Shown piece after piece: positions 13,039 through 50,552 of a stretch of 64,000 nucleotides of DNA. Each line of letters starts with the position of its first letter. Within the stretch, counting starts at the first letter, position 1. Source of the stretch: Thermoanaerobaculia bacterium (GTDB lineage: Bacteria; Acidobacteriota; Thermoanaerobaculia; Multivoradales; JAHEKO01); contig CAWAET010000002.1 in the NCBI GenBank assembly GCA_963781065.1, positions 146,462-210,461 on the forward strand, read 5' to 3'. Made by a program: the position numbers and the translations under genes. A model generated the notes under the pieces. It ran no database searches. It saw only the letters and a list, made by a program, of their open reading frames with translations, and was not told where the DNA came from.

Positions 13039-16000
13039 GTGGAAACTCCAGAACAGAACGAAAGCGCCGGCTCTCCGCCGCGCAAACGGCGTGGCCCCGG
13101 CGCGGCAAGACCGGTGCCGCTGCACAAGCGCAGCAGCTCGCACTTCCGGCCGACCGTGCGCGAGCGCGGTCGACAGGACCTCGAGGCGGGACGGGTGACC
13201 CTGGAGGTCGACGACATGCGCAGCCGGGCGCGGGTCGAGGGCGCCGACCAGAAAACCTACGCGGTCGGGCTCGACTGGTCCCAGGTGGAAGCGAAACGGG
13301 CGCTGCATGCCTTCTGCGAATGCCGTCGGTTCGCGGCCGGCAAGCCCTGCGAGCACATCTGGGCGACCCTGCTGGCCCTGGCCGGTCACGGCAAGAGCAT
13401 CCAGCCGCCGGGACGCGACCGCGTCTCGCTGCGCAAGGACCGCGCCTCGGCCTGGGACGACCTGGGAATCTCGCCCGAGGCCCTGGCGCTGGCAGTAGCG
13501 GTCGAAGAGGCGCCGCCGCCGCCACGCTCGACCCAGCGCAGTCGGACCGCCGGGGCACGCCACTCCGCGACCTCCTGGCGGTCGCAGCTCGACTCACTGC
13601 GCGCCGAGGTCGGCCGGCTGTCGACGCCGGCGGTAGGCGCCCCCAAGACCGCCGACGCCAAGGTCGTCACCCGCTTTCTGGTCAACACCTCGGCCAGTCG
13701 CAATCAAGACGGCCTGGTTCTGGATATCTTCACTCGCAGGCTCGGCCCCGGCGGCCGGCCGGGCAAGCTCAAGCGCTCCGGCCTCGAGCCCGAAGCGCTG
13801 AGCCGGCTGCTGCTGCCCCAGGGCGCCGTCGCCGATACCAACGGCGACCTGCCGGTGATCACCGCCCTGGCTTCGGCGGCCAAGGCTCGGCAGGGGCGGG
13901 CTCGGCGCGGCCAGCAGAGCAACGGCAGGATCCAGCGCTTCCGCCTGCCGGATCGCCTGCACGAGGCGGTGCTCTCGAATCTGGCCGCGGCGGGCGTGCT
14001 CGGTTCCTGGGACGGCCGCCGGCTGAGCGAAGGCGCCGCCCTGAATTGGGACACCGGTCGGCCGTGGCGGCTCAGGCTGCGGCTGGCGGCGGCCGCCGGC
14101 GGCGCCAAGCTGGCCGGCAGCCTGGAGCGCAACGGCGACCGGGTGCCGCTGACTGCCCCGCTGCTGATCCTGCCCACCGCCAAGCCGGGCCGTTCGCTGG
14201 TCGTCTTCGCCGAGACCATCGGCGTCTTGCGGGCCGCCGAAAGCGAGCTGCACTGGATCACGCTGCTGCGCGACGCGCGAGAGATCGTCATCCCCGAGCG
14301 CGACCTCGAAGACGCGCTGACCGAGCTGCTCGAGATTCCCGACCTGCCCAGCCTCGAGATCCCCGATGAGCTGCGCGCCGCCGAGGAGACCTCGCCCCCG
14401 CGGCCGCGGCTGATGCTGACCAAGGACGCCAATTCGGTACTGCCCCACGCGCCGCTGCTGGCCGAGCTCTCGTTCCGCTACGGCGAGCTCGAGGTCAGCG
14501 CCCGGGACGCACGGCCGACGATCATCGAGTGGCCGGGCCCGACCCTGCTGCGGCGCGACATGGAGCGCGAGCACCAGCTGTTGATCCGCCTGCTCGAGGC
14601 CGGCGTCGAGCCGGTCCCCGGCAGCCAGGAGAACGAGATCGAGCTGTCGCCGCACAAGGTCCCGGCCGCCGCCGAGCTGCTGCTCATGGAGGGCTGGGAG
14701 GTGGAGATCAGCGGCGCCTCGCTGCGGGCGCCGGGCCCGCCGGCGCTGAGGATCGAGAGCGGCATCGACTGGTTCGAGCTCGCCGGCGGGCTGGAGTTCG
14801 CGGGCAACGAGGTCGAGCTCAAGAAGATCCTCGAGGCGGTCAAGAAGGGCCAGCGATTCGTCGCCCTCAAGGACGGCTCGCAGGGACTGCTGCCGTCGTC
14901 GTGGAGCGAGGCCTACGGCTCGCTGGCCCAGCTGGCCCAGGACACGAGCGAGGAAGGGCTGCGCTTCCTGCCGTCGCAGGCGATGCTGGTCGATGCCCTG
15001 CTGGTCGAGATGCCGCCGGCGGCGGTGGACAAGACGTTTGCCGAGCTGCGCGAGAAGCTGAGCTCGTTCGACCGCATCAAGCCGAAGAAGGAGCCGCGCG
15101 GCTTTGGCGGCACCCTGCGCGGCTACCAGCGCGAGGGACTCGGCTGGCTCGACTTCATGCGCCAGTTCGGCCTCGGCGGCGTGCTGGCCGACGACATGGG
15201 GCTGGGCAAGACGGTGCAGCTGCTGGCCCTGCTGCGCCTCAACCGCACGCCCTCGAAGACCACCGGCCTGCCCTCGCTGGTGGTGGTGCCGCGCAGCCTG
15301 CTCTACAACTGGCTCGAGGAGGCGGCGCGCTTCACCCCCAAGCTCAAGGTGGTCGAGTACAGCGGCCCCGGGCGCGAGGCCTTGCAGGGCAAGTTGGACA
15401 GCTACGACCTGGTGTTGACGACCTACGGCACGCTGCGCCGCGACATCGGGTATCTGGCGACGGTCGAGTTCGACACCGTCGTCCTCGACGAGGCGCAGGC
15501 GATCAAGAACCGCGACTCGCAGGCCGCCAAGGCCAGCCGGCTGCTCCAGGGCCGCCACCGGCTGGCGCTGACCGGCACGCCGATCGAGAACCATCTGGGC
15601 GAGCTCTGCTCGCTGTTCGAGTTCCTCAACCCGGGGCTGCTGGGCCGGCTGCCGACCCTCGAGATCCTCTCCAGCGGCCGCAAGGCGGGGGCCGACGAGC
15701 TGGCCAAGGTGGCCGCCGGCATCCGCCCCTTCATCCTGCGGCGGACCAAGGCACAGGTGCTGCCCGATCTGCCGGCGAAGACCGAGCAGGTGCTGCACTG
15801 CACCCTCAACCCGCGTCAGCGCGAGATCTACGACCAGCTCAAGGCCGGCTATCAAACCACCCTGCTGCGCCAGGCCGAGCAGGATGGCGTCGGCAAGTCG
15901 GCCATCCAGGTGCTCGAGGCGCTGCTGCGGCTGCGCCAGGTCGCCTGCCATCCGGGGCTGGTCAACGACGAGTGGGTCGAGGCCGGCAGCGCCAAGCTGG

Positions 16001-16494
16001 ACACCCTGTTCGACCTGGTCGACGAGGTGCTCGACGAGGGGCACAAGGTGCTGGTCTTCTCCCAGTTCACCAAGCTGCTCGGTCTGGTCCGGGAGCGGCT
16101 CGAGGAGCGCGGCATCGACTACGCCTACCTCGACGGCCAGACCCGCAACCGCGGTCGGGTGGTCGAGCGGTTCCAGACCGAGCCGAGCTGCAACCTCTTC
16201 CTGATCAGCCTCAAGGCCGGCGGCGTCGGCCTCAACCTGACCGCCGCCGACTACGTCTTCCTGCTCGACCCGTGGTGGAACCCGGCGGTCGAGGCCCAGG
16301 CGATCGACCGCACCCACCGCATCGGCCAGACCCAGCCGGTCTTCGCCTACCGGCTGATCGCCCAGGACACGGTCGAGGAGAAGATCCTCCAGCTGCAGAG
16401 CTCCAAGCGCAAGCTCGCCGACGCCATCCTCGGCGGCGAGGGCGGACCGCTCAAGGAGCTGACCGCCGACGATCTACGGATGCTGCTGAGCTAG
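13039..16494 (+). CDS. SWIM zinc-finger + SNF2/RapA-family helicase
   Basis: 1151-aa ORF with a SWIM motif CECRRFAAGKPCEHIWA near the N-terminus. SNF2 ATPase motifs: LADDMGLGKT, VLDEAQAIKN, LTGTPIENHL. Helicase C motifs: VLVFSQFT, LISLKAGGVGLNLT, DPWWNPAVEAQAIDRTHRIGQ. Confidence 0.85.
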   Translation: METPEQNESAGSPPRKRRGPGAARPVPLHKRSSSHFRPTVRERGRQDLEAGRVTLEVDDMRSRARVEGADQKTYAVGLDWSQVEAKRALHAFCECRRFAAGKPCEHIWATLLALAGHGKSIQPPGRDRVSLRKDRASAWDDLGISPEALALAVAVEEAPPPPRSTQRSRTAGARHSATSWRSQLDSLRAEVGRLSTPAVGAPKTADAKVVTRFLVNTSASRNQDGLVLDIFTRRLGPGGRPGKLKRSGLEPEALSRLLLPQGAVADTNGDLPVITALASAAKARQGRARRGQQSNGRIQRFRLPDRLHEAVLSNLAAAGVLGSWDGRRLSEGAALNWDTGRPWRLRLRLAAAAGGAKLAGSLERNGDRVPLTAPLLILPTAKPGRSLVVFAETIGVLRAAESELHWITLLRDAREIVIPERDLEDALTELLEIPDLPSLEIPDELRAAEETSPPRPRLMLTKDANSVLPHAPLLAELSFRYGELEVSARDARPTIIEWPGPTLLRRDMEREHQLLIRLLEAGVEPVPGSQENEIELSPHKVPAAAELLLMEGWEVEISGASLRAPGPPALRIESGIDWFELAGGLEFAGNEVELKKILEAVKKGQRFVALKDGSQGLLPSSWSEAYGSLAQLAQDTSEEGLRFLPSQAMLVDALLVEMPPAAVDKTFAELREKLSSFDRIKPKKEPRGFGGTLRGYQREGLGWLDFMRQFGLGGVLADDMGLGKTVQLLALLRLNRTPSKTTGLPSLVVVPRSLLYNWLEEAARFTPKLKVVEYSGPGREALQGKLDSYDLVLTTYGTLRRDIGYLATVEFDTVVLDEAQAIKNRDSQAAKASRLLQGRHRLALTGTPIENHLGELCSLFEFLNPGLLGRLPTLEILSSGRKAGADELAKVAAGIRPFILRRTKAQVLPDLPAKTEQVLHCTLNPRQREIYDQLKAGYQTTLLRQAEQDGVGKSAIQVLEALLRLRQVACHPGLVNDEWVEAGSAKLDTLFDLVDEVLDEGHKVLVFSQFTKLLGLVRERLEERGIDYAYLDGQTRNRGRVVERFQTEPSCNLFLISLKAGGVGLNLTAADYVFLLDPWWNPAVEAQAIDRTHRIGQTQPVFAYRLIAQDTVEEKILQLQSSKRKLADAILGGEGGPLKELTADDLRMLLS

Positions 16495-16631
16495 CCGGAG
16501 TTTCTCACCAACTCCCTACTGCGCCGACGCCTGCACTTGAATCTGCGGGACTTCCCTCGGTCGAGCATCCTCGCGAGTCGGATCCCGCGCCTTCGCCGAC
16601 CGGTTCGTGTGCCGGGCGGGTTCCCGTCGCC

Positions 16632-44322: not shown

Positions 44323-45202
44323 TCAGGCCTCGAGCGACACTCGCCCGGCGCCGGAGTAGATGTTGAAGCGACCGTCGCGCAGAAAGCCGATCAGGGTCAT
44401 GCCGTGGTCGCGCGCCAGCTCGACCGCCAGGCTGCTCGGGGCGCCCACCGCCGCCAGCAGCGGCAAGCCGGCCAGCACCGCCTTCTGCACCAGCTCGAAG
44501 CTGGCTCGACCGCTGACCAGGAGCAGCCGGTCGGGCGCCGGCAGCCGGCCGGCGAGCAGCAGGGCGCCCACCACCTTGTCGACCGCGTTGTGCCGCCCGA
44601 CGTCCTCGCGCACCAGGTCCAGACCGCCGGCGGCGTCGAACAGCGCGGCGGCATGCAGACCGCCGGTGGCGGCGAAGGTCGCCTGCGCCGCCGCCAGCCG
44701 GCGCGGCAGCGACAGCAGCGTCTCGGCAGCGACCCGCAGCTCGTCGGCCGCAACGGCCGGCGCCGCCGGCAGCGCGGCCCGCACCAGCTCGAGCGATCCG
44801 CGGCCGCAGACGCCGCAGCTCGAGCTGGTGAGGACGTTGCGGCTGAAGCGGGCCGGGTCGAAGGCGCAGCCCGGCGCCAGGGTCAGCTCGACGACGTTGC
44901 GCGCCTCCTCGGCGGCGCCGCCCTCGCAGTAGGCGAGGCCGGCCACCTCCGCCGCGGCCGCCGACCGCTCCCTCGCCGTGGAGGAATCCCGCCGCCAGCT
45001 CGAAGTCGTGGCCGGGAGTGCGCATGGTCACGGCGACGGCGTGCCGGCGGCGCCGTCCCGCCGTCTCGGTCACCACCCGCACCTCCAGCGGCTCCTCCAC
45101 CGCCAGCAGATCGCTCCGCTCGCGGCTCTTCCCGGCCTCGACAACCCGCACCGCCGAGCGGCTCACGCTGGCGGCGGGAGGAGCGGTGCGCCGGCCGCTC
45201 AC
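44323..45202 (-). CDS. fdhD: Formate dehydrogenase accessory sulfurtransferase FdhD; 1 frame switch near 44965
   Basis: The GTG at 45202 overlaps the stop of the upstream oxidoreductase (GTGA). The N-terminal half ...AVEEPLEVRV...MRTPGHDFELAAGFLHGEGAV is in one frame. The C-terminal half VAGLAYCEG...SSCGVCG...GRHNAVDK...SGRASFELVQKA is ORF 44323..44946. Confidence 0.8.
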
Positions 45203-47409
45203 GACGACGTCGCGGGCGGCCTGCCGGCCGCCGGCACCACCTCGACCTCGGCGTCGCGATAGGCCGGGATGCCGCAGGCCTCGTCGAAGACGCCTCGCGG
45301 CACCAGGACGTTGGCCTCGGGCCAGAACATCATGACGGTGCCGGGCTCGACCGCGCCGGCGACCGCCCGGCCGGCGAGCTCGCCGGCATCGCTGCGCACG
45401 ACCACCGCGTCGCCGGCCACGAGGCCCAGCCGTTCGAGCTCGCCGGGGGCCATCACCACGGCGTCCCGCTCGGCGCCGGTCAGCGTGTCGCGCTGGCCGA
45501 ACACCATGCTGTTGAACTGCTTGCCGCGGCGACTGTTGAGCCGGTACCAGCCCGGCCGGCGGCGGCGCTCGGGCGGCGCCACGGCGACGAACCGGGCGCG
45601 GCCGTCGGCGGTGCCGAAGCGGCCGTCGGCCGCCAGATGGCGCCCGCCCCACTGCACCTGGTCGCCCTCGCGCGCCAGCTTCTCGATGCCCTTGTAGAGC
45701 GGAATCACCCGCGCGATCTCGGCGCGGATCTCGGCGGTCGAGCCGAAGGCGACCCGCTCGGCGGCCTGCGGACGGACGCGGCCGGCCAGCTCGGCGAGCA
45801 CCCGCCACTCGTCGCGCGCCGCGGCCACCCGCGGCCCCGGGATCTCGGGGCTGAAGATGATCCGCCGCTCGGTAGAGGTCTCGGTGCAGCCGCCGGCCAT
45901 CTCGTAGCGGGTGGTGGCCGGCAACAGCAGCACCGCCTCCGCCGGATCGACCAGCATCTGCGGGTTGAGCATGATGTCGTGATGGATGCGCAGCGGGATC
46001 CGCTCCATCGCCGCCCGCACATAGCCCGGGTCGGGCAGTACTCCCAGCAGGTTCGAGCCGACGCAGTAGAGCGCCTCCAGCTCGCCGTCGTGGGCGCGAT
46101 CGATCATCTCGGCGACGTAGGCGCCGCGACCGGTCGGCACCGCGAAGCCCCACAACGCCTCGAGCTGTCGCGCTCCCGCCGCGTCCGTCGCCATGCCGCC
46201 CGGCAGGACGTTCGGCACGCAGCCCATCTCGGCGCCGCCCTGAACCCCGGAATGGCCGCGGATCGGCATCAGACCGGCGCCGTTGCGTCCGACCATGCCG
46301 CGCGCCAGGGCCAGGTCGGCGATCGCCTGCACGTTGTCGACGCCGTGCCGGTGCATGGTGAGGCCCATCGACCAGACGAAGATCGCCGAGCCGGACTCGG
46401 CATAGAGCCGAGCCAGCTCCAGCATCGCCGCCCGTGAAAGCCCGGACAGCTGCTCGAGCCGCTCGAAGCTCTGCTCGGACAGCGCCGCCTCGAGCTCGGC
46501 CCAGCCGTGGGTGTGCTCGTCGATGAAGCGGCGGTCCAGCCAGTCGTTGGCGACCAGCTGCTTGAGGACGCCGTTGACGAAGGCGATGTCGCCGCCCACC
46601 CGCACCGGGAAGTGGCGGTCGGCGATGGCGGTGCCGAGGAGCGCCGAATCGACGTTCGACGGCACCCAGTAGCGCTCCAGCCCGGGCTCGCGGTAGGGGT
46701 TCACCATCACCACCCGGGTGCCGCGCTTCTTGGCCAGATGCAGGTACTTCATCATCACCGGCTGGTTGTTAGCCGGGTCGCTGCCGAAGAAGACCACCAG
46801 ATCGCTCTCGAGCACGTCGCGGTAGCTGCAGGTGGTGGCGGCGAAGCCGATGGTGCGCTGGAGCCCGGTGGTGCTGGCGGCGTGGCAGAGCCGTGACGAG
46901 TTGTCGACGTTGTTGGTGCCCAGATAGCGCGCCACCTTCTGCGCCACGTAGTAGGTCTCGTTGGCGGTGCCGCGGGAGACCAGGTAGAAGGCCAGCCGCC
47001 GCGGATCGATCCCCCGCATCCGATCGGCCGCCAGCGACAGGGCGGCGTCCCAGGAGATCGGCCGGAAGCCGGCCTCCCCCCGTCGCCGCACCAGCGGCAC
47101 CGGCAGCCGCCCGAGCTGCCTCAGGTCGGCCTCGCTCCGGCCGGCCAGCGCCGCGGCGTCCGCCGCCACCGCCGGATCGAAGGCCGGCATGGTGTTCAGG
47201 CGCAGCAGGTTCAGCCGGACCCAACACAGATGGATGCCGTCGATCGTCCAGTCGCGCATGCCGGCGGTGCCCAGGGCGCAGCCGTCGCAGACCCCGTGGT
47301 TGAGGATCCGCCAGGCGTAGCCGGGCCGGTCCCGGTTCTGCCAGGCGGTGCGGGCGATCTCCTGAAAGGGGCCGAACTGCCGCCGCAGCCGCCGGCCGAG
47401 GGCGCTCAC
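45199..47409 (-). CDS. Molybdopterin oxidoreductase of the FdhF/YdeP family
   Basis: 736-aa reading from GTG 47409, which overlaps the mobA stop (GTGA). Motifs include NHGVCDGCALG, SRLCHAAS, a long MopB body and a C-terminal molybdopterin dinucleotide-binding domain. The upstream part of ORF 45199..48174 is read-through in a shadow frame. Confidence 0.8.
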   Translation of the reverse strand: MSALGRRLRRQFGPFQEIARTAWQNRDRPGYAWRILNHGVCDGCALGTAGMRDWTIDGIHLCWVRLNLLRLNTMPAFDPAVAADAAALAGRSEADLRQLGRLPVPLVRRRGEAGFRPISWDAALSLAADRMRGIDPRRLAFYLVSRGTANETYYVAQKVARYLGTNNVDNSSRLCHAASTTGLQRTIGFAATTCSYRDVLESDLVVFFGSDPANNQPVMMKYLHLAKKRGTRVVMVNPYREPGLERYWVPSNVDSALLGTAIADRHFPVRVGGDIAFVNGVLKQLVANDWLDRRFIDEHTHGWAELEAALSEQSFERLEQLSGLSRAAMLELARLYAESGSAIFVWSMGLTMHRHGVDNVQAIADLALARGMVGRNGAGLMPIRGHSGVQGGAEMGCVPNVLPGGMATDAAGARQLEALWGFAVPTGRGAYVAEMIDRAHDGELEALYCVGSNLLGVLPDPGYVRAAMERIPLRIHHDIMLNPQMLVDPAEAVLLLPATTRYEMAGGCTETSTERRIIFSPEIPGPRVAAARDEWRVLAELAGRVRPQAAERVAFGSTAEIRAEIARVIPLYKGIEKLAREGDQVQWGGRHLAADGRFGTADGRARFVAVAPPERRRRPGWYRLNSRRGKQFNSMVFGQRDTLTGAERDAVVMAPGELERLGLVAGDAVVVRSDAGELAGRAVAGAVEPGTVMMFWPEANVLVPRGVFDEACGIPAYRDAEVEVVPAAGRPPATSS

Positions 47410-48032
47410 CGCGCCGCCCCGGCGGTCGCGCCAAGCAGCCGGCGAGCCCGGCGCAGGTCGTCCGGCCGGTTGAGGTTGAGCAGCAGCTCGGGGCGGTAGC
47501 AGTCGAGCTCGGCCTTGATCGGCACCGCGACGCCACCGATCGCCATGAAGAAGCCGCGCACCGCAAGCTCGCCGGCCCGCAGCCGCGCCTCCGCCACGGC
47601 GCGCGCGGCCGGCGAGTAGACGCCGCACAGCGGCTGGGTTCCGGCGGCGTCGGCCGCCGCCCAGCCGGCCTCGTCCGGAGCCTCCGCCGCCCGCGCCGCG
47701 GCGAACGCAGCCAGGTAGCGCACCAGATCGGCTTCGACAAACGGCAGGTCGCAGGCCAGGGCGAAGATCGCCCGGCCCCCGGCACGCTCGAGCCCGGCGT
47801 GCAGGCCGGCGAGCGGCCCGCGGCCGGGGAATCGGTCCGGCACCGCCTCGACCCCGGCCGGTGCCGCGCCGGCAGGGCCGGCGACGACCACCTCGCCGCA
47901 GGCCTCCACCAGCACCGCGGCGGCGCGATGGGCCAGGGGCGTGCCGGTCCACGGCAGCGTCGCCTTGTCGCGGCCGAGCCGCCGGCTGGCGCCGCCGGCC
48001 AGAACCACGCCCAGGATGTCGAAGTCGCTCAT
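47406..48032 (-). CDS. mobA: Molybdenum cofactor guanylyltransferase
   Basis: MSDFDILGVVLAGGASRRLGRDKATLPW...VPDRFPGRGPLAGLHAGL...LACDLPF. Confidence 0.8.
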   Translation of the reverse strand: MSDFDILGVVLAGGASRRLGRDKATLPWTGTPLAHRAAAVLVEACGEVVVAGPAGAAPAGVEAVPDRFPGRGPLAGLHAGLERAGGRAIFALACDLPFVEADLVRYLAAFAAARAAEAPDEAGWAAADAAGTQPLCGVYSPAARAVAEARLRAGELAVRGFFMAIGGVAVPIKAELDCYRPELLLNLNRPDDLRRARRLLGATAGAAR

Positions 48033-48086
48033 GCGAGACGTCCCACCGGGACGGGCGGATCGTAGCAGGGGCGCCGCGAGCCGTAC

Positions 48087-48279
48087 GGCGCACTAGCCCG
48101 ACCTTCTCACCGGCTCTCGCAGCGAGCCGGCGTAGGTGCCTGAAGATGTGGGACTTGCCGACCGAGGGCACCACAGGCGTACTTGAAGTACGTCGAGGAT
48201 GACCGACCGAGGGAAGTCTCGCAGATTCAGGTACCTACGTCGGCGCAGTCGAGAGCTGGTGAGAAGGTCGGGCTAGCGC
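48087..48279. repeat. Nested imperfect palindrome of about 190 nt (MITE-like element or long structured RNA)
   Basis: Outer arms 48093-48119 / 48250-48276 form 27 contiguous pairs. Middle arms are 48126-48156 / 48214-48244. The central palindrome CGTACTT-G-AAGTACG is at 48178-48192. An 11-bp direct repeat CCGACCGAGGG occurs at 48158-48168 and 48203-48213. CTAG sits at both outer ends. Confidence 0.7.
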
Positions 48280-50552
48280 AGGAACGAGCGGTGAACCAGC
48301 CGCGAATGGCTGATCCACGAGGTGTCCGGGATCAGCCCGGCGGGCAGCGGCGGCGTCTCCGGCAGGCCCCAGAACTGCTCGGTCAGGTGCAGCTCGACCG
48401 GCCAGCGGTCGGGTAGCTCGAAGGCGACCTCCAGCCCCTCGGGGGGCAGGCCGGCGAGCTCCAGCCGCAGCGGTCTCGCGGCCTCGTCGGCGCCGCGCTC
48501 GAAGCGCTGTCCGGCCAGCTCGACGGCGGTGATCTGGACTGTCGAGACGGCCTCGACCCGCAGCATCGGCGCGCCGCCGGGCGAGCGCAGCCGCACGGTC
48601 AGCCGGCGGCCGTCCCGCCGCAGATCCTCGACCACCACCGCCTCCGGTCCGGCGGCCGTGGCGGCAACGGCGGGGCTCTTGAGGATCGGCCGCTCCGGCA
48701 GACCGAGAGACGGCGGCGCCCGCCACGACTGTGGCGCGCCACCAAGCCGCTCGACGATCCACGGATGCGGCCGCGCGTCGCGGCTGAGCCAGAAGCCGGC
48801 ACCCTGGTCCAGGTCCTCGAGACGGAGCAGGTCCGCCGTGCGCGGCCGCTCGGCGTCGGGGACGCCCCAGACCGAGGCGGCCAGGGCCACCAGACAGCCG
48901 ACCAGCGCCGCCAGCGCAACCCCCTGCCGCTCGCCGGCCGCCGCTCGCAGCGCCGGCAGGGCGAGGACCGCGATCAGCGCCGCCGGTGCCAGCGCCGCCG
49001 CGGCCAGTTGCGGCGTCAACGCCAGGAAGATCTGCTCGGCCAGCGGCGTCAGAAGCGCCACTCCGGGCAGCGCGCCCGCGCTCAGCAACAGCACCGCCAC
49101 CGGCCGCGGCAGGTCCGCCGCCACGACCACGGCCGCGGCGCCCAGCAGCCCCCAGAGCGGCCACCAGAACAGAAAACCGGTACCGGGCAGAAGCGCGGCG
49201 CTCACCAGCGCGAGGACCGCCAGCAGCAACGCCACGCCTAGCGCCGTCTCGGCCGGCCGCGACCGCCGGCTCAACCCCACCGGCACGGCCGCCGCCGCCA
49301 GCCCGCCTAGAAACAGCGCGACGCCGCACAGCTCCAGACGGTGCGGCAGGCCGTATGGAGTGTCCAGCAGCGCTCCGGCGTTGTCGGCAAAGAGCTTCCA
49401 GAGCAGCGCCCCGGCCAGCGGCACGATCACCAGAACGGTCAGCCCGAGCGCCGCCGCCCTCGCGAGGGCGCGGCCGTCGAGCCGACCGCGCCTGATGCCG
49501 GCAATCGCCAGCGCCAGGGCGAGCGCCGCCAGGATCGCCGCCAGCGGCACGATCGCGCCGGCCGGGAGCACGAGCAGCCAGCTGCCGAGCGGGTTGAACC
49601 AGACGCCCCCCGCCGGCCGCGATGCCCCCGGCCAGCCGTCGAGCTGGCGAATCAGCGCCACCGCGTTGGCGCCGGCGTGCTGCAGGCTTCCCGGGTCCAG
49701 TCGGTCGACGGTGTCGAGCGCCGTGTGGTAGGCGTCGAGCCCGCCGAGAAAAGCGAAGTTGAGACCGCTCGCGCCGCGCGCGCGGAAGGCGCTGAAGTCG
49801 CTGTCGTTGGGCATCCGCTCGTACACCGCGGCGCTCAGCGAGGTGGCCATCGGATGCGGCGCGGCGCGGGCGAAAACCCGCACCAGGTCGAGATCTCCCC
49901 GGCCGGTCTCGAACATCACCGCCGGTCCGCGCGAGCCGCGCGCCTCGAAGTTCAGCGCCACCTCCACCTCCGCCATCCAGGGATGCTCGGCGGCGAAGCC
50001 GCGAGCGCCGAGCAGGCCGAGCTCCTCGCCGTCGGTGAGCAGCACGATCAGATCCCTCGCCGGCGGCGGCCCCTGCGCCAGCGCCCGCACGGTCTCGAGC
50101 ACCACCGCCACCCCCGAGCCGTCGTCGCTGGCGCCCGGGGTGTTGGGCCGGCTGTCGTAGTGGGCCGCCAGCAGCACCGGGCCGGCGCCGCCGCGGCCCG
50201 CGCGGCGGCCGACCAGGTTGCGCACGCGCGCCGCGCGGATCAAACCCTGCCGCTCCCGGGCGACGATCGTCTCCTGCACGCGTGGCGCCAGCTCCAGCGC
50301 CGCCATCCGGGCGAGCAGGTAGTCGCGCGCCGCCCGGTGGCCCGGCGAGCCCACCGGTCGCGGCTGCCGCGCCAGCTCGCGGACGTCGATCAGGGCGCGG
50401 CCGGCGGCGAAGCGGTGAGCGGCGGCGGCGGCCGGCAGCGGCCGAGGCGGCCGCGCCAGCCAGAGCGATAGCGCCGCCGCCAGAGCCACCAGAGCCAGTC
50501 CGGCGGCGCCGGCCAGCCTCTCGCGGGCTCTGCCGAGGCCTTCTTCACTCAT
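48273..50552 (-). CDS. Membrane-bound M28-family aminopeptidase
   Basis: 759-aa ORF. The N-terminal M28 domain has AAHYDSRPNTPGASDDGSGVAVVLE and LLTDGEELGLLG motifs. Multiple hydrophobic helices follow, then a C-terminal soluble region. Confidence 0.8.
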   Translation of the reverse strand: MSEEGLGRARERLAGAAGLALVALAAALSLWLARPPRPLPAAAAAHRFAAGRALIDVRELARQPRPVGSPGHRAARDYLLARMAALELAPRVQETIVARERQGLIRAARVRNLVGRRAGRGGAGPVLLAAHYDSRPNTPGASDDGSGVAVVLETVRALAQGPPPARDLIVLLTDGEELGLLGARGFAAEHPWMAEVEVALNFEARGSRGPAVMFETGRGDLDLVRVFARAAPHPMATSLSAAVYERMPNDSDFSAFRARGASGLNFAFLGGLDAYHTALDTVDRLDPGSLQHAGANAVALIRQLDGWPGASRPAGGVWFNPLGSWLLVLPAGAIVPLAAILAALALALAIAGIRRGRLDGRALARAAALGLTVLVIVPLAGALLWKLFADNAGALLDTPYGLPHRLELCGVALFLGGLAAAAVPVGLSRRSRPAETALGVALLLAVLALVSAALLPGTGFLFWWPLWGLLGAAAVVVAADLPRPVAVLLLSAGALPGVALLTPLAEQIFLALTPQLAAAALAPAALIAVLALPALRAAAGERQGVALAALVGCLVALAASVWGVPDAERPRTADLLRLEDLDQGAGFWLSRDARPHPWIVERLGGAPQSWRAPPSLGLPERPILKSPAVAATAAGPEAVVVEDLRRDGRRLTVRLRSPGGAPMLRVEAVSTVQITAVELAGQRFERGADEAARPLRLELAGLPPEGLEVAFELPDRWPVELHLTEQFWGLPETPPLPAGLIPDTSWISHSRLVHRSFLR

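Follow-up and report, generated by a model that had tools for sequence, protein, structure and literature searches.

Within the window (the whole 64-kb stretch of DNA analysed here), an imperfect hairpin of 184 nt with near-perfect pairing occupies positions 48093-48276, between genes for an M28 family peptidase and a MobA-like NTP transferase. The mobA-like gene follows the peptidase gene on the minus strand, and its start lies 60 nt from the element. Homologues of the peptidase carry the names of Thermoanaerobaculia (Acidobacteriota). The features of the locus, together with a related piece found elsewhere in the window, are as follows.

16491-16573, minus strand: decayed half-copy comprising the right arm up to the central hairpin, where it is cut off (83% identical by blastn to element positions 102-184).
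47406-48032, minus strand: MobA-like NTP transferase of the molybdenum cofactor guanylyltransferase type (Pfam PF12804, E 7e-32).
48093-48096, unstranded: left target-site duplication CTAG (YTAR flanks are direct in nearly all copies).
48097-48272, plus strand: body of the probable MITE, 176 nt; the '+' orientation of the family is the window plus strand.
48097-48111, plus strand: left terminal inverted repeat core CCCGACCTTCTCACC, almost invariant among copies.
48158-48168, plus strand: direct repeat copy 1, CCGACCGAGGG, in the internal loop on the left arm, mirror of copy 2.
48178-48192, plus strand: central hairpin CGTACTT-G-AAGTACG, with a flanking G·T at 48177/48193 (columns 81-100 of alignment A3, described below).
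48203-48213, plus strand: direct repeat copy 2, CCGACCGAGGG, in the internal loop on the right arm, mirror of copy 1.
48258-48272, minus strand: right terminal inverted repeat core, GGTGAGAAGGTCGGG on the plus strand, conserved among copies.
48273-48276, unstranded: right target-site duplication CTAG, of which 48273-48275 is the TAG stop of the peptidase on the minus strand.
48273-50552, minus strand: M28 family peptidase, 759 aa (Pfam PF04389, E 1e-46), with its stop inside the insertion site.

The pairing reported in the first-pass annotation of this DNA was reproduced in full. Its outer arms (48093-48119 and 48250-48276) form 27 unbroken pairs, namely 26 Watson-Crick pairs and one G·T, and its second arm pair (48126-48156 and 48214-48244) covers 31 positions, of which two neighbouring ones are mismatched and four are G·T. 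The central palindrome and the mirror-placed 11-nt direct repeat are likewise present, all six transition-type mismatches (6/6) read G/T or T/G on the plus strand, and CTAG stands on both sides, the right-hand one supplying the peptidase stop. The borders read CTAG|CCCGACC and GGTCGGG|CTAG. The terminal repeat of about 27 bp that had been proposed holds as to its 27 pairs; the end conserved in the family is 15 nt (CCCGACCTTCTCACC), and the longer pairing belongs to the element-wide hairpin. When both strands were folded as RNA, the plus strand was more stable by 23 kcal/mol, with a minimum free energy of −145.7 kcal/mol (shuffled sequences −78.8 ± 4.7; z −14.2) compared with −122.4 kcal/mol (z −11.3) for the minus strand; DNA parameters gave −70.7 and −60.2 kcal/mol, respectively. 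The pairing of the palindrome is far beyond chance, and the remainder of the 64-kb window holds no comparable inverted repeat. An Rfam scan of 47000-49500 with E up to 10 returned zero matches on the element, and a consensus scan of 47700-48700 found no sigma-70-like promoter, no intrinsic terminator and no U-tract.

Comparison with the orthologous peptidase-mobA spacer, which the first-pass annotation had named as a check, shows the site without the element. At the closest other locus, L003, the peptidase is 86% identical and the gene order matches that of the window (M28 peptidase, mobA, molybdopterin oxidoreductase, fdhD), and the spacer, which lacks the element, measures 51 nt against 240 nt in the window. 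Without the element and one of the two CTAG, the window sequence can be aligned to L003 on either flank, including the final codons RSFLR-stop. The extra 180-190 nt constitute the element, and the orthologous site displays a presence/absence polymorphism. The C-terminus RSFLR* is the same in L003, where the gene stops with TGA (TCAG on the plus strand); since this empty site is TCAG and not CTAG, the pre-insertion tetranucleotide is deduced rather than observed. About 4 kb away from its empty site, L003 also has a gene for an integrase.

The element belongs to a dispersed family. Using an exact 23-mer of the arm as query, we matched two metagenome contigs, one with a full copy (L001; 96% identity across 182 nt, flanked by two unrelated genes in convergent orientation) and one with a 50-nt remnant (L002), and obtained zero matches in GTDB genomes. 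Neither PLSDB plasmids nor INPHARED phages gave a blastn match to the element. Scanning one genome per GTDB species with 17-mers gave at least 114 loci, and about two-thirds of the 114 loci listed were discarded as chance matches in unrelated phyla; many of these encode the ABC-ATPase Walker A peptide GEKVGL and have no YTAR flank. The same scan yielded at least 15 full copies, with 173-176 nt between the ends, and more than 20 further copies are partial or deleted. A nhmmer profile built from the 15 full copies scored the body of the element in the window at 142 bits on the plus strand versus 52 bits on the minus strand. Copies are hosted by Thermoanaerobaculia, Thermoanaerobaculales, Holophagae and other Acidobacteriota MAGs, and among the matches listed a few non-chance loci fall in Planctomycetota and Verrucomicrobiota. 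Multiple copies, which the first-pass annotation had taken as the mark of a MITE, were thus found in related MAGs, often on several contigs per MAG: JARFRM01 holds up to about 10 pieces, with 9 contigs involved, and in JBFGLX01 5 contigs carry pieces. Many contigs end within a copy, the usual mark of a dispersed repeat that breaks assemblies. A pair of end-like matches 2.76 kb apart (L105) was set aside as a chance pair with diverged ends.

The window itself contains one full copy and one half-copy in 64 kb. The half-copy at 16491-16573 was recovered with an nhmmer E of 5e-8, and its CTAG (16491-16494) holds the TAG stop of the plus-strand open reading frame 13039-16494. At 176 nt the element is well below the length of about 500 bp up to which MITEs are counted as short, and it is noncoding, its arms varying by compensatory changes without a codon pattern. 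Across the family, mini-derivatives of 50-120 nt keep one or both ends together with their flanks (L002, L013, L018, L029, L069 and L089), and half-copies terminate at the hairpin tip. One full copy, L101, matches its sister L042 at 158/176 positions as it stands and at 173/176 when the central 80 nt are reverse-complemented; the centre is inverted in L101, and therefore the arms recombine with each other, flipping the centre. Such centre flips, half-copies and mini-derivatives are ordinary fates of a palindromic transposon.

Every full copy starts with CCCGACCTTCTCACC and ends with its complement, with at most 1-2 changes, and is flanked on both sides by YTAR, most often CTAG/CTAG. The first-pass annotation had suggested a CTAG target duplication, and the flanks support this by co-varying as a direct repeat: L062 and L079 carry CTAA/CTAA, whereas an extension of the inverted repeat would give CTAA/TTAG, which identifies the flank as a direct duplication of the target. 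Perfect 4-nt direct-repeat flanks occur in 12 of the 19 two-ended copies (the two CTAA/CTAA cases among them), and in the other 7/19 the flanks differ by one mismatch. The apparent length of the duplication is 4 nt; because CTAG is itself palindromic, the flanks are compatible with a duplication of 2, 3 or 4 nt within the YTAR target.

The choice of target also accounts for the position on a stop codon. At a G+C content of 72%, the window holds 17 CTAG where 161 would be expected from base composition (about 10-fold depleted), and 3 of these 17 sites flank the two copies of the element. Using genes called by third-position G+C, we found that the window has 30 YTAR sites, 10 of them stop codons. 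Among 20 copies of the family, 9-10 have the stop codon of a neighbouring gene within the flank, including both copies in the window. That CTAG supplies the peptidase stop is consequently an outcome of target choice, and as duplication of CTAG regenerates the stop, the protein is unchanged.

The 64-kb window contains no transposase gene. Insertion sequences (IS) that carry CCCGACCTTCTCACC at one edge, preceded by CTAG, were found at three other loci: L068 (1727 bp; host Thermoanaerobaculia), L056 (about 1725 bp; host Bryobacterales) and L118 (1719 bp). Their second inverted repeat is imperfect (TCCGAAAATCTCACC, CCCGGATTTCTCAAG and CCCGGAAATCTCACC, respectively), their far-side flank is YTAG (CTAG or TTAG), and each encodes a single gene of about 470 codons. 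The 470-aa transposases of L068 and L056 match PF13701 at E 1e-150 and 1e-139 and the NCBIfam model NF033539, 'IS1380 family transposase', at 393 and 375 bits (equivalog cut-off 180 bits), and that of L118 (P0122) has precomputed PF13701 and PF01609 domains. A related IS (P0129) is listed at eight places, representing at least seven different insertion sites, with CTAG/CTAG flanks at seven places and CTAA/CTAG at one; a further protein, P0149, is by name an IS1380 family transposase of Thermoanaerobaculia. An open reading frame beside a lone end at L058 was considered as the partner transposase and rejected, as it encodes a glycosyltransferase.

The end of the element corresponds to the IRR tip of these IS (3' of the transposase gene), and both of its ends are of the IRR type. 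Alignment between the element and the IS is confined to the terminal 16-24 nt. Similarity limited to the ends is usual for MITEs of unrelated internal origin; it is compatible with cross-mobilisation. From the shared ends we infer that the element would be mobilised in trans by an IS1380-family transposase. Taken together, the empty orthologous site, the many copies elsewhere, the direct-repeat flanks and the IS1380-family ends bear out the suggestion of the first-pass annotation that this is a MITE, and we consider it very probable that a MITE mobilised in trans by an IS1380-family transposase was inserted into CTAG at the peptidase stop. Its further proposal, a recombination or protein-binding site, found no support as a reading in its own right; the transposase presumably binds at the ends. 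In the mechanism we propose, an IS1380-family transposase supplied in trans would bind the two identical ends and insert the 176-bp element into YTAR (here CTAG), duplicating the target. Given that CTAG is rare and one-third of the surviving YTAR sites are stops, the element came to lie exactly on the TAG of the M28 peptidase, whose stop the duplicated CTAG restored, leaving the peptidase intact.

An imperfect palindrome directly after a stop codon also recalls integron attC sites and terminators, just as intergenic repeats recall REPs, and other DNA machinery might therefore be invoked: a REP/REPIN moved by RAYT, the attC site of an integron, or an intrinsic terminator serving the peptidase gene. 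REP/REPIN elements are 20-40-nt palindromes that depend on the RAYT (IS200-like) transposase and make no target duplication, and attC sites are defined by R''/R' core sites (RYYYAAC ... GTTRRRY) and a linked integron integrase. The ends described here are those of a DDE IS1380-family IS and not of a RAYT-associated REP, and a 4-nt direct duplication is present at the flanks. No GTTRRRY/RYYYAAC core sites lie at the borders, the flanking genes encode a peptidase and MobA, and the integrase-bearing locus L003 is without the element. A terminator is opposed by the lack of a U-tract or terminator-like site in the region scanned. We regard this set of explanations as extremely improbable.

Several bacterial MITEs form hairpins, among them ERIC/IRU in enterobacteria, Correia/NEMIS in Neisseria and RUP in Streptococcus pneumoniae. 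These are noncoding elements of 100-200 bp with terminal inverted repeats and a short TA-centred duplication, and they occur between genes, near gene ends, in many diverged copies whose transcripts each fold into a single imperfect hairpin; RUP is associated with IS630-Spn1. The element described here, likened to them by description only and with no similarity in sequence noticed, shares their size, noncoding nature, ends, location and hairpin. It differs in its host phylum (Acidobacteriota, class Thermoanaerobaculia), in its YTAR target with an apparent 4-nt duplication and, compared with RUP, in having ends that match IS of the IS1380 family. A literature search (ISfinder and Dfam were not part of it) found no paper on an IS1380-related MITE or on this element. 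As far as checked, the family has not been described before; it is a MITE family of a familiar type from a phylum that has been little studied.

Within the IS1380 family, IS1247 is 1672 bp long with inverted repeats of 16/13 and a direct repeat of 5 bp (PMC3281130). The 1.72-kb partner IS resembles it in size and architecture, and the 5-bp direct repeat of IS1247 is close to the short 4-nt flank duplication of the MITE (PMC3281130). IS1380-family tips begin with CC, as do the ends of the MITE. Compared with IS of this family, the MITE lacks a transposase gene, has a tenth of the length and is bounded by IRR-type ends on both sides. It also resembles foldback-type elements with flip-flop centres, in that its arms pair over the full length and the centre of L101 is inverted; in contrast to these, it is very short, has a defined 15-nt transposase-type end and keeps a fixed length of 173-176 nt.

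We then turn to the question of why the hairpin is retained. Between subfamilies the arms are only about 70% identical, yet each copy still forms a hairpin. An RNAalifold consensus computed on 14 sequences (alignment A3) contains 56 pairs, and changes on both sides were seen in 29/56. Paired cells amount to 93%, versus 79% in column shuffles and 35-43% when the partners were slid, and the covariation score is 0.44, compared with 0.18 for shuffles and 0.06-0.10 for the slid controls. Double changes are concentrated in helix 3 (columns 30-53 / 127-150), where they affect 16 of 20 pairs. All subfamilies keep a small internal loop beside the ends (TCGnnnGCGAG opposite GCAGTAG) and purine-purine positions at 39/141, 49-50/130-131 and 56/124. 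The most conserved internal motif of the family, likewise retained by every subfamily, is the central GGCGTAC-loop-GTACGTCGAG, and its G·U at columns 82/99 is present in 11/14 copies. On both arms of the window/L001, L028/L048 and L055/L100 subfamilies stands the motif CGACCGAG, the position of which is ordinary helix in the L026 subfamily.

The hairpin is also strand-asymmetric. All full copies (15/15) fold 9-26 kcal/mol better in one orientation of the element, which corresponds to the window plus strand, and these copies are distributed over both contig strands, six on one and nine on the other. Stability hence tracks the orientation of the element, and a local strand mutation bias, which had been raised as an explanation of the G·T pattern, is rejected. 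The asymmetry is therefore a property of the family and not specific to the window. Its extent depends on how it is counted. G·T exceeds A·C by 46 to 3 among RNAalifold pairs with one representative per subfamily, and by 43 to 3 in the RNAalifold structure with a slightly different subfamily grouping; we discount both counts as biased, because the predictor permits G·U. Over all mirrored positions the ratio is 48 to 15, for differences within subfamilies it is 15 to 4, and for isolated mismatches with two Watson-Crick pairs on each side it is 12 to 6, which is non-significant (p 0.24). The probability of 1/64 that the first-pass annotation assigned to six of six mismatches on one strand is valid for the window copy; across the family, the last two counts make the bias weaker. 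We conclude that a family-wide strand bias is real and moderate, and that it is partly inherited from a common ancestor.

These observations could be taken to indicate a structured non-coding RNA gene on the plus strand, antisense to peptidase-mobA, for which mobility would be secondary or past; a long antisense RNA was among the alternatives of the first-pass annotation. The better fold of the plus strand by 23 kcal/mol, its recurrence in the same direction in all 15 family members and the compensatory changes in 29 of 56 pairs would fit such a gene, as would wobbles found repeatedly at given helix positions in both polarities (46/134 and 47/133 carry G·U as well as U·G) and internal loops that read G·A, A·G or G·G on the plus strand. 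Against it, no Rfam family was matched even at E 10, and 47700-48700 contains neither a sigma-70-like promoter nor an intrinsic terminator. Many copies are truncated or internally deleted, the sole nearly invariant sequence is the transposon end, and the centre flips relative to the arms, so that there is no fixed RNA sequence. Nor is there a consistent mRNA context, since, of the copies faced by the 3' end of a gene, 11 are antisense and 6 are sense to that gene; an apparent orientation bias of 8/8 antisense among full copies gave way to this 11 to 6 once partial copies were included. With orientation variable, no promoter in the region scanned and no relative in Rfam, a dedicated RNA gene is disfavoured, and we consider it quite unlikely.

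Alternatively, the element may be a DNA palindrome that arose from two copies of one IS end, its pairing maintained by recombination or repair between the arms with no function of a single strand, and its G·T inherited or due to a mutation bias tied to the element. Both ends are of the perfect IRR type, whereas the IS has an imperfect IRL, L101 equals L042 with its central 80 nt inverted, half-copies break at the hairpin tip, inter-arm recombination could maintain complementarity without selection, and the strictest test of the asymmetry is non-significant, all of which speaks for such a palindrome. On the other hand, subfamilies retain in common the asymmetric loops (columns 23-29 versus 151-156), the G·U at 82/99 and the G·A positions, and polymorphisms within subfamilies favour G·T (15 to 4). 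Frequent homogenisation of the arms is disfavoured because it would have erased these asymmetries in helices that have diverged by 30%; the retention of the same asymmetric loops through this divergence argues against pure homogenisation. This account is plausible, even though we lean against it.

Across the family, one and the same strand of the element shows G·T, G·A or G·G at the non-Watson-Crick positions, and we infer that a single-stranded form of this strand, RNA or DNA, may be constrained in the copies that are amplified. Candidate reasons for the hairpin and its strand bias are a single-strand constraint (on RNA, or on a DNA hairpin that would draw together the two ends of so short an element) and arm homogenisation together with ancestry. 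The stronger claim, that one specific strand must fold as RNA or single-stranded DNA for the element to work, would be based on the G·U wobbles, on tandem G·A loops kept through about 30% divergence and on the excess of G·T over A·C among recent variants; we hold it to be doubtful. If it is true, a DDE transposase of the IS1380 type would act on very short elements through a substrate in hairpin or cruciform form or, alternatively, the element would represent a mobile structured-RNA module that is tolerated or exploited by hosts at gene ends.

The element is an ordinary kind of object with an unusually intact hairpin that is biased towards one strand, and it reveals no new kind of system. Reading it as a MITE explains the 240-nt spacer and its 'nested palindrome' as a transposon insertion, and links a MITE family to IS1380-type elements in a barely cultured phylum. 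The combination of YTAR and CCCGACCTTCTCACC provides a signature for repeat-induced contig breaks in Thermoanaerobaculia MAGs. Specificity for a rare target tetranucleotide steers insertions onto stops in a high-G+C genome while leaving the protein undamaged, and the strand-biased hairpin offers a concrete system for asking whether MITE structure is selected, at the DNA or the RNA level. At the locus itself, a transcript reading through from the peptidase gene would bear the weaker, minus-strand hairpin, 60 nt upstream of the mobA start.

Two MITE copies in the related MAG JARFRM01, L101:7299-7474 and L042:1801-1976, differ chiefly in the orientation of their central ~80 nt, which are inverted between them. 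The copies match at 158 of 176 positions as they stand and at 173 of 176 once the centre is flipped, a relationship that, judged from the two sequences, indicates recombination between the MITE's two arms. Truncated and enlarged forms of the element, together with elements that share only its end, are listed below.

Variant forms of the MITE and elements sharing its end
Window 16491-16573, minus orientation: decayed half-copy (right-arm half), TIR CCGGAGTTTCTCACC
L061:3836-4121: longer version, 286 nt, Holophagae MAG, flanks TTAG/TTAA
L091:4097-4340: longer version, 244 nt, Holophagae MAG, flanks TTAG/TTAA
L046:59-291: shared end, unrelated interior, Planctomycetota
L070 and L072: shared end, unrelated interiors, Verrucomicrobiota
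L084: shared end, unrelated interior, Terriglobia

Both longer versions carry an additional 70-110-nt insert in mid-element, which may be a nested element. The half-copy stops at the central hairpin, and the TAG codon that terminates a 1151-aa ORF (13039..16494(+)) lies within its CTAG flank. The 64-kb window has 17 CTAG sites where 161 would be expected, a depletion of about ten-fold, and stop codons make up one third of its YTAR tetranucleotides. Among the 34 called genes of the window, TAG and TGA stops are equally common (16 and 15, respectively). Two MITE copies of one MAG, at L026:7885-7898 and L066:7153-7166, differ in their left flanks and have an identical right flank (CTAGgaggctgcac); a composite element, a chimeric assembly or a larger repeat could account for this.

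The end consisting of YTAG followed by CCCGACCTTCTCACC also delimits the four listed elements with unrelated interiors. Since a common end is thus combined with unrelated interiors in other phyla, these sequences suggest several independent MITE families with this IS1380-type end. The MITE end GGTGAGAAGGTCGGGCT doubles as coding sequence for the Walker A loop of ABC ATPases (GEKVGL), and the 17-mer search therefore draws ABC transporter genes across many phyla. L005, L011, L017, L021, L033, L036 and many more were rejected as MITE copies, being false positives of this kind.

Upstream of the molybdopterin oxidoreductase gene no stop codon interrupts its frame across mobA and on into the MITE, so that mechanical ORF lists give a spurious 991-aa ORF overlapping the element (window 45199-48174 (-)). 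Comparison with L003, a relative's locus with the same gene order and no MITE, places the real gene at approximately 45199-47409 (-). L003 additionally encodes an integrase of the phage type and a DUF433 protein (L003:737-2041) ~4 kb upstream of the peptidase, outside the shared gene order examined with the window.
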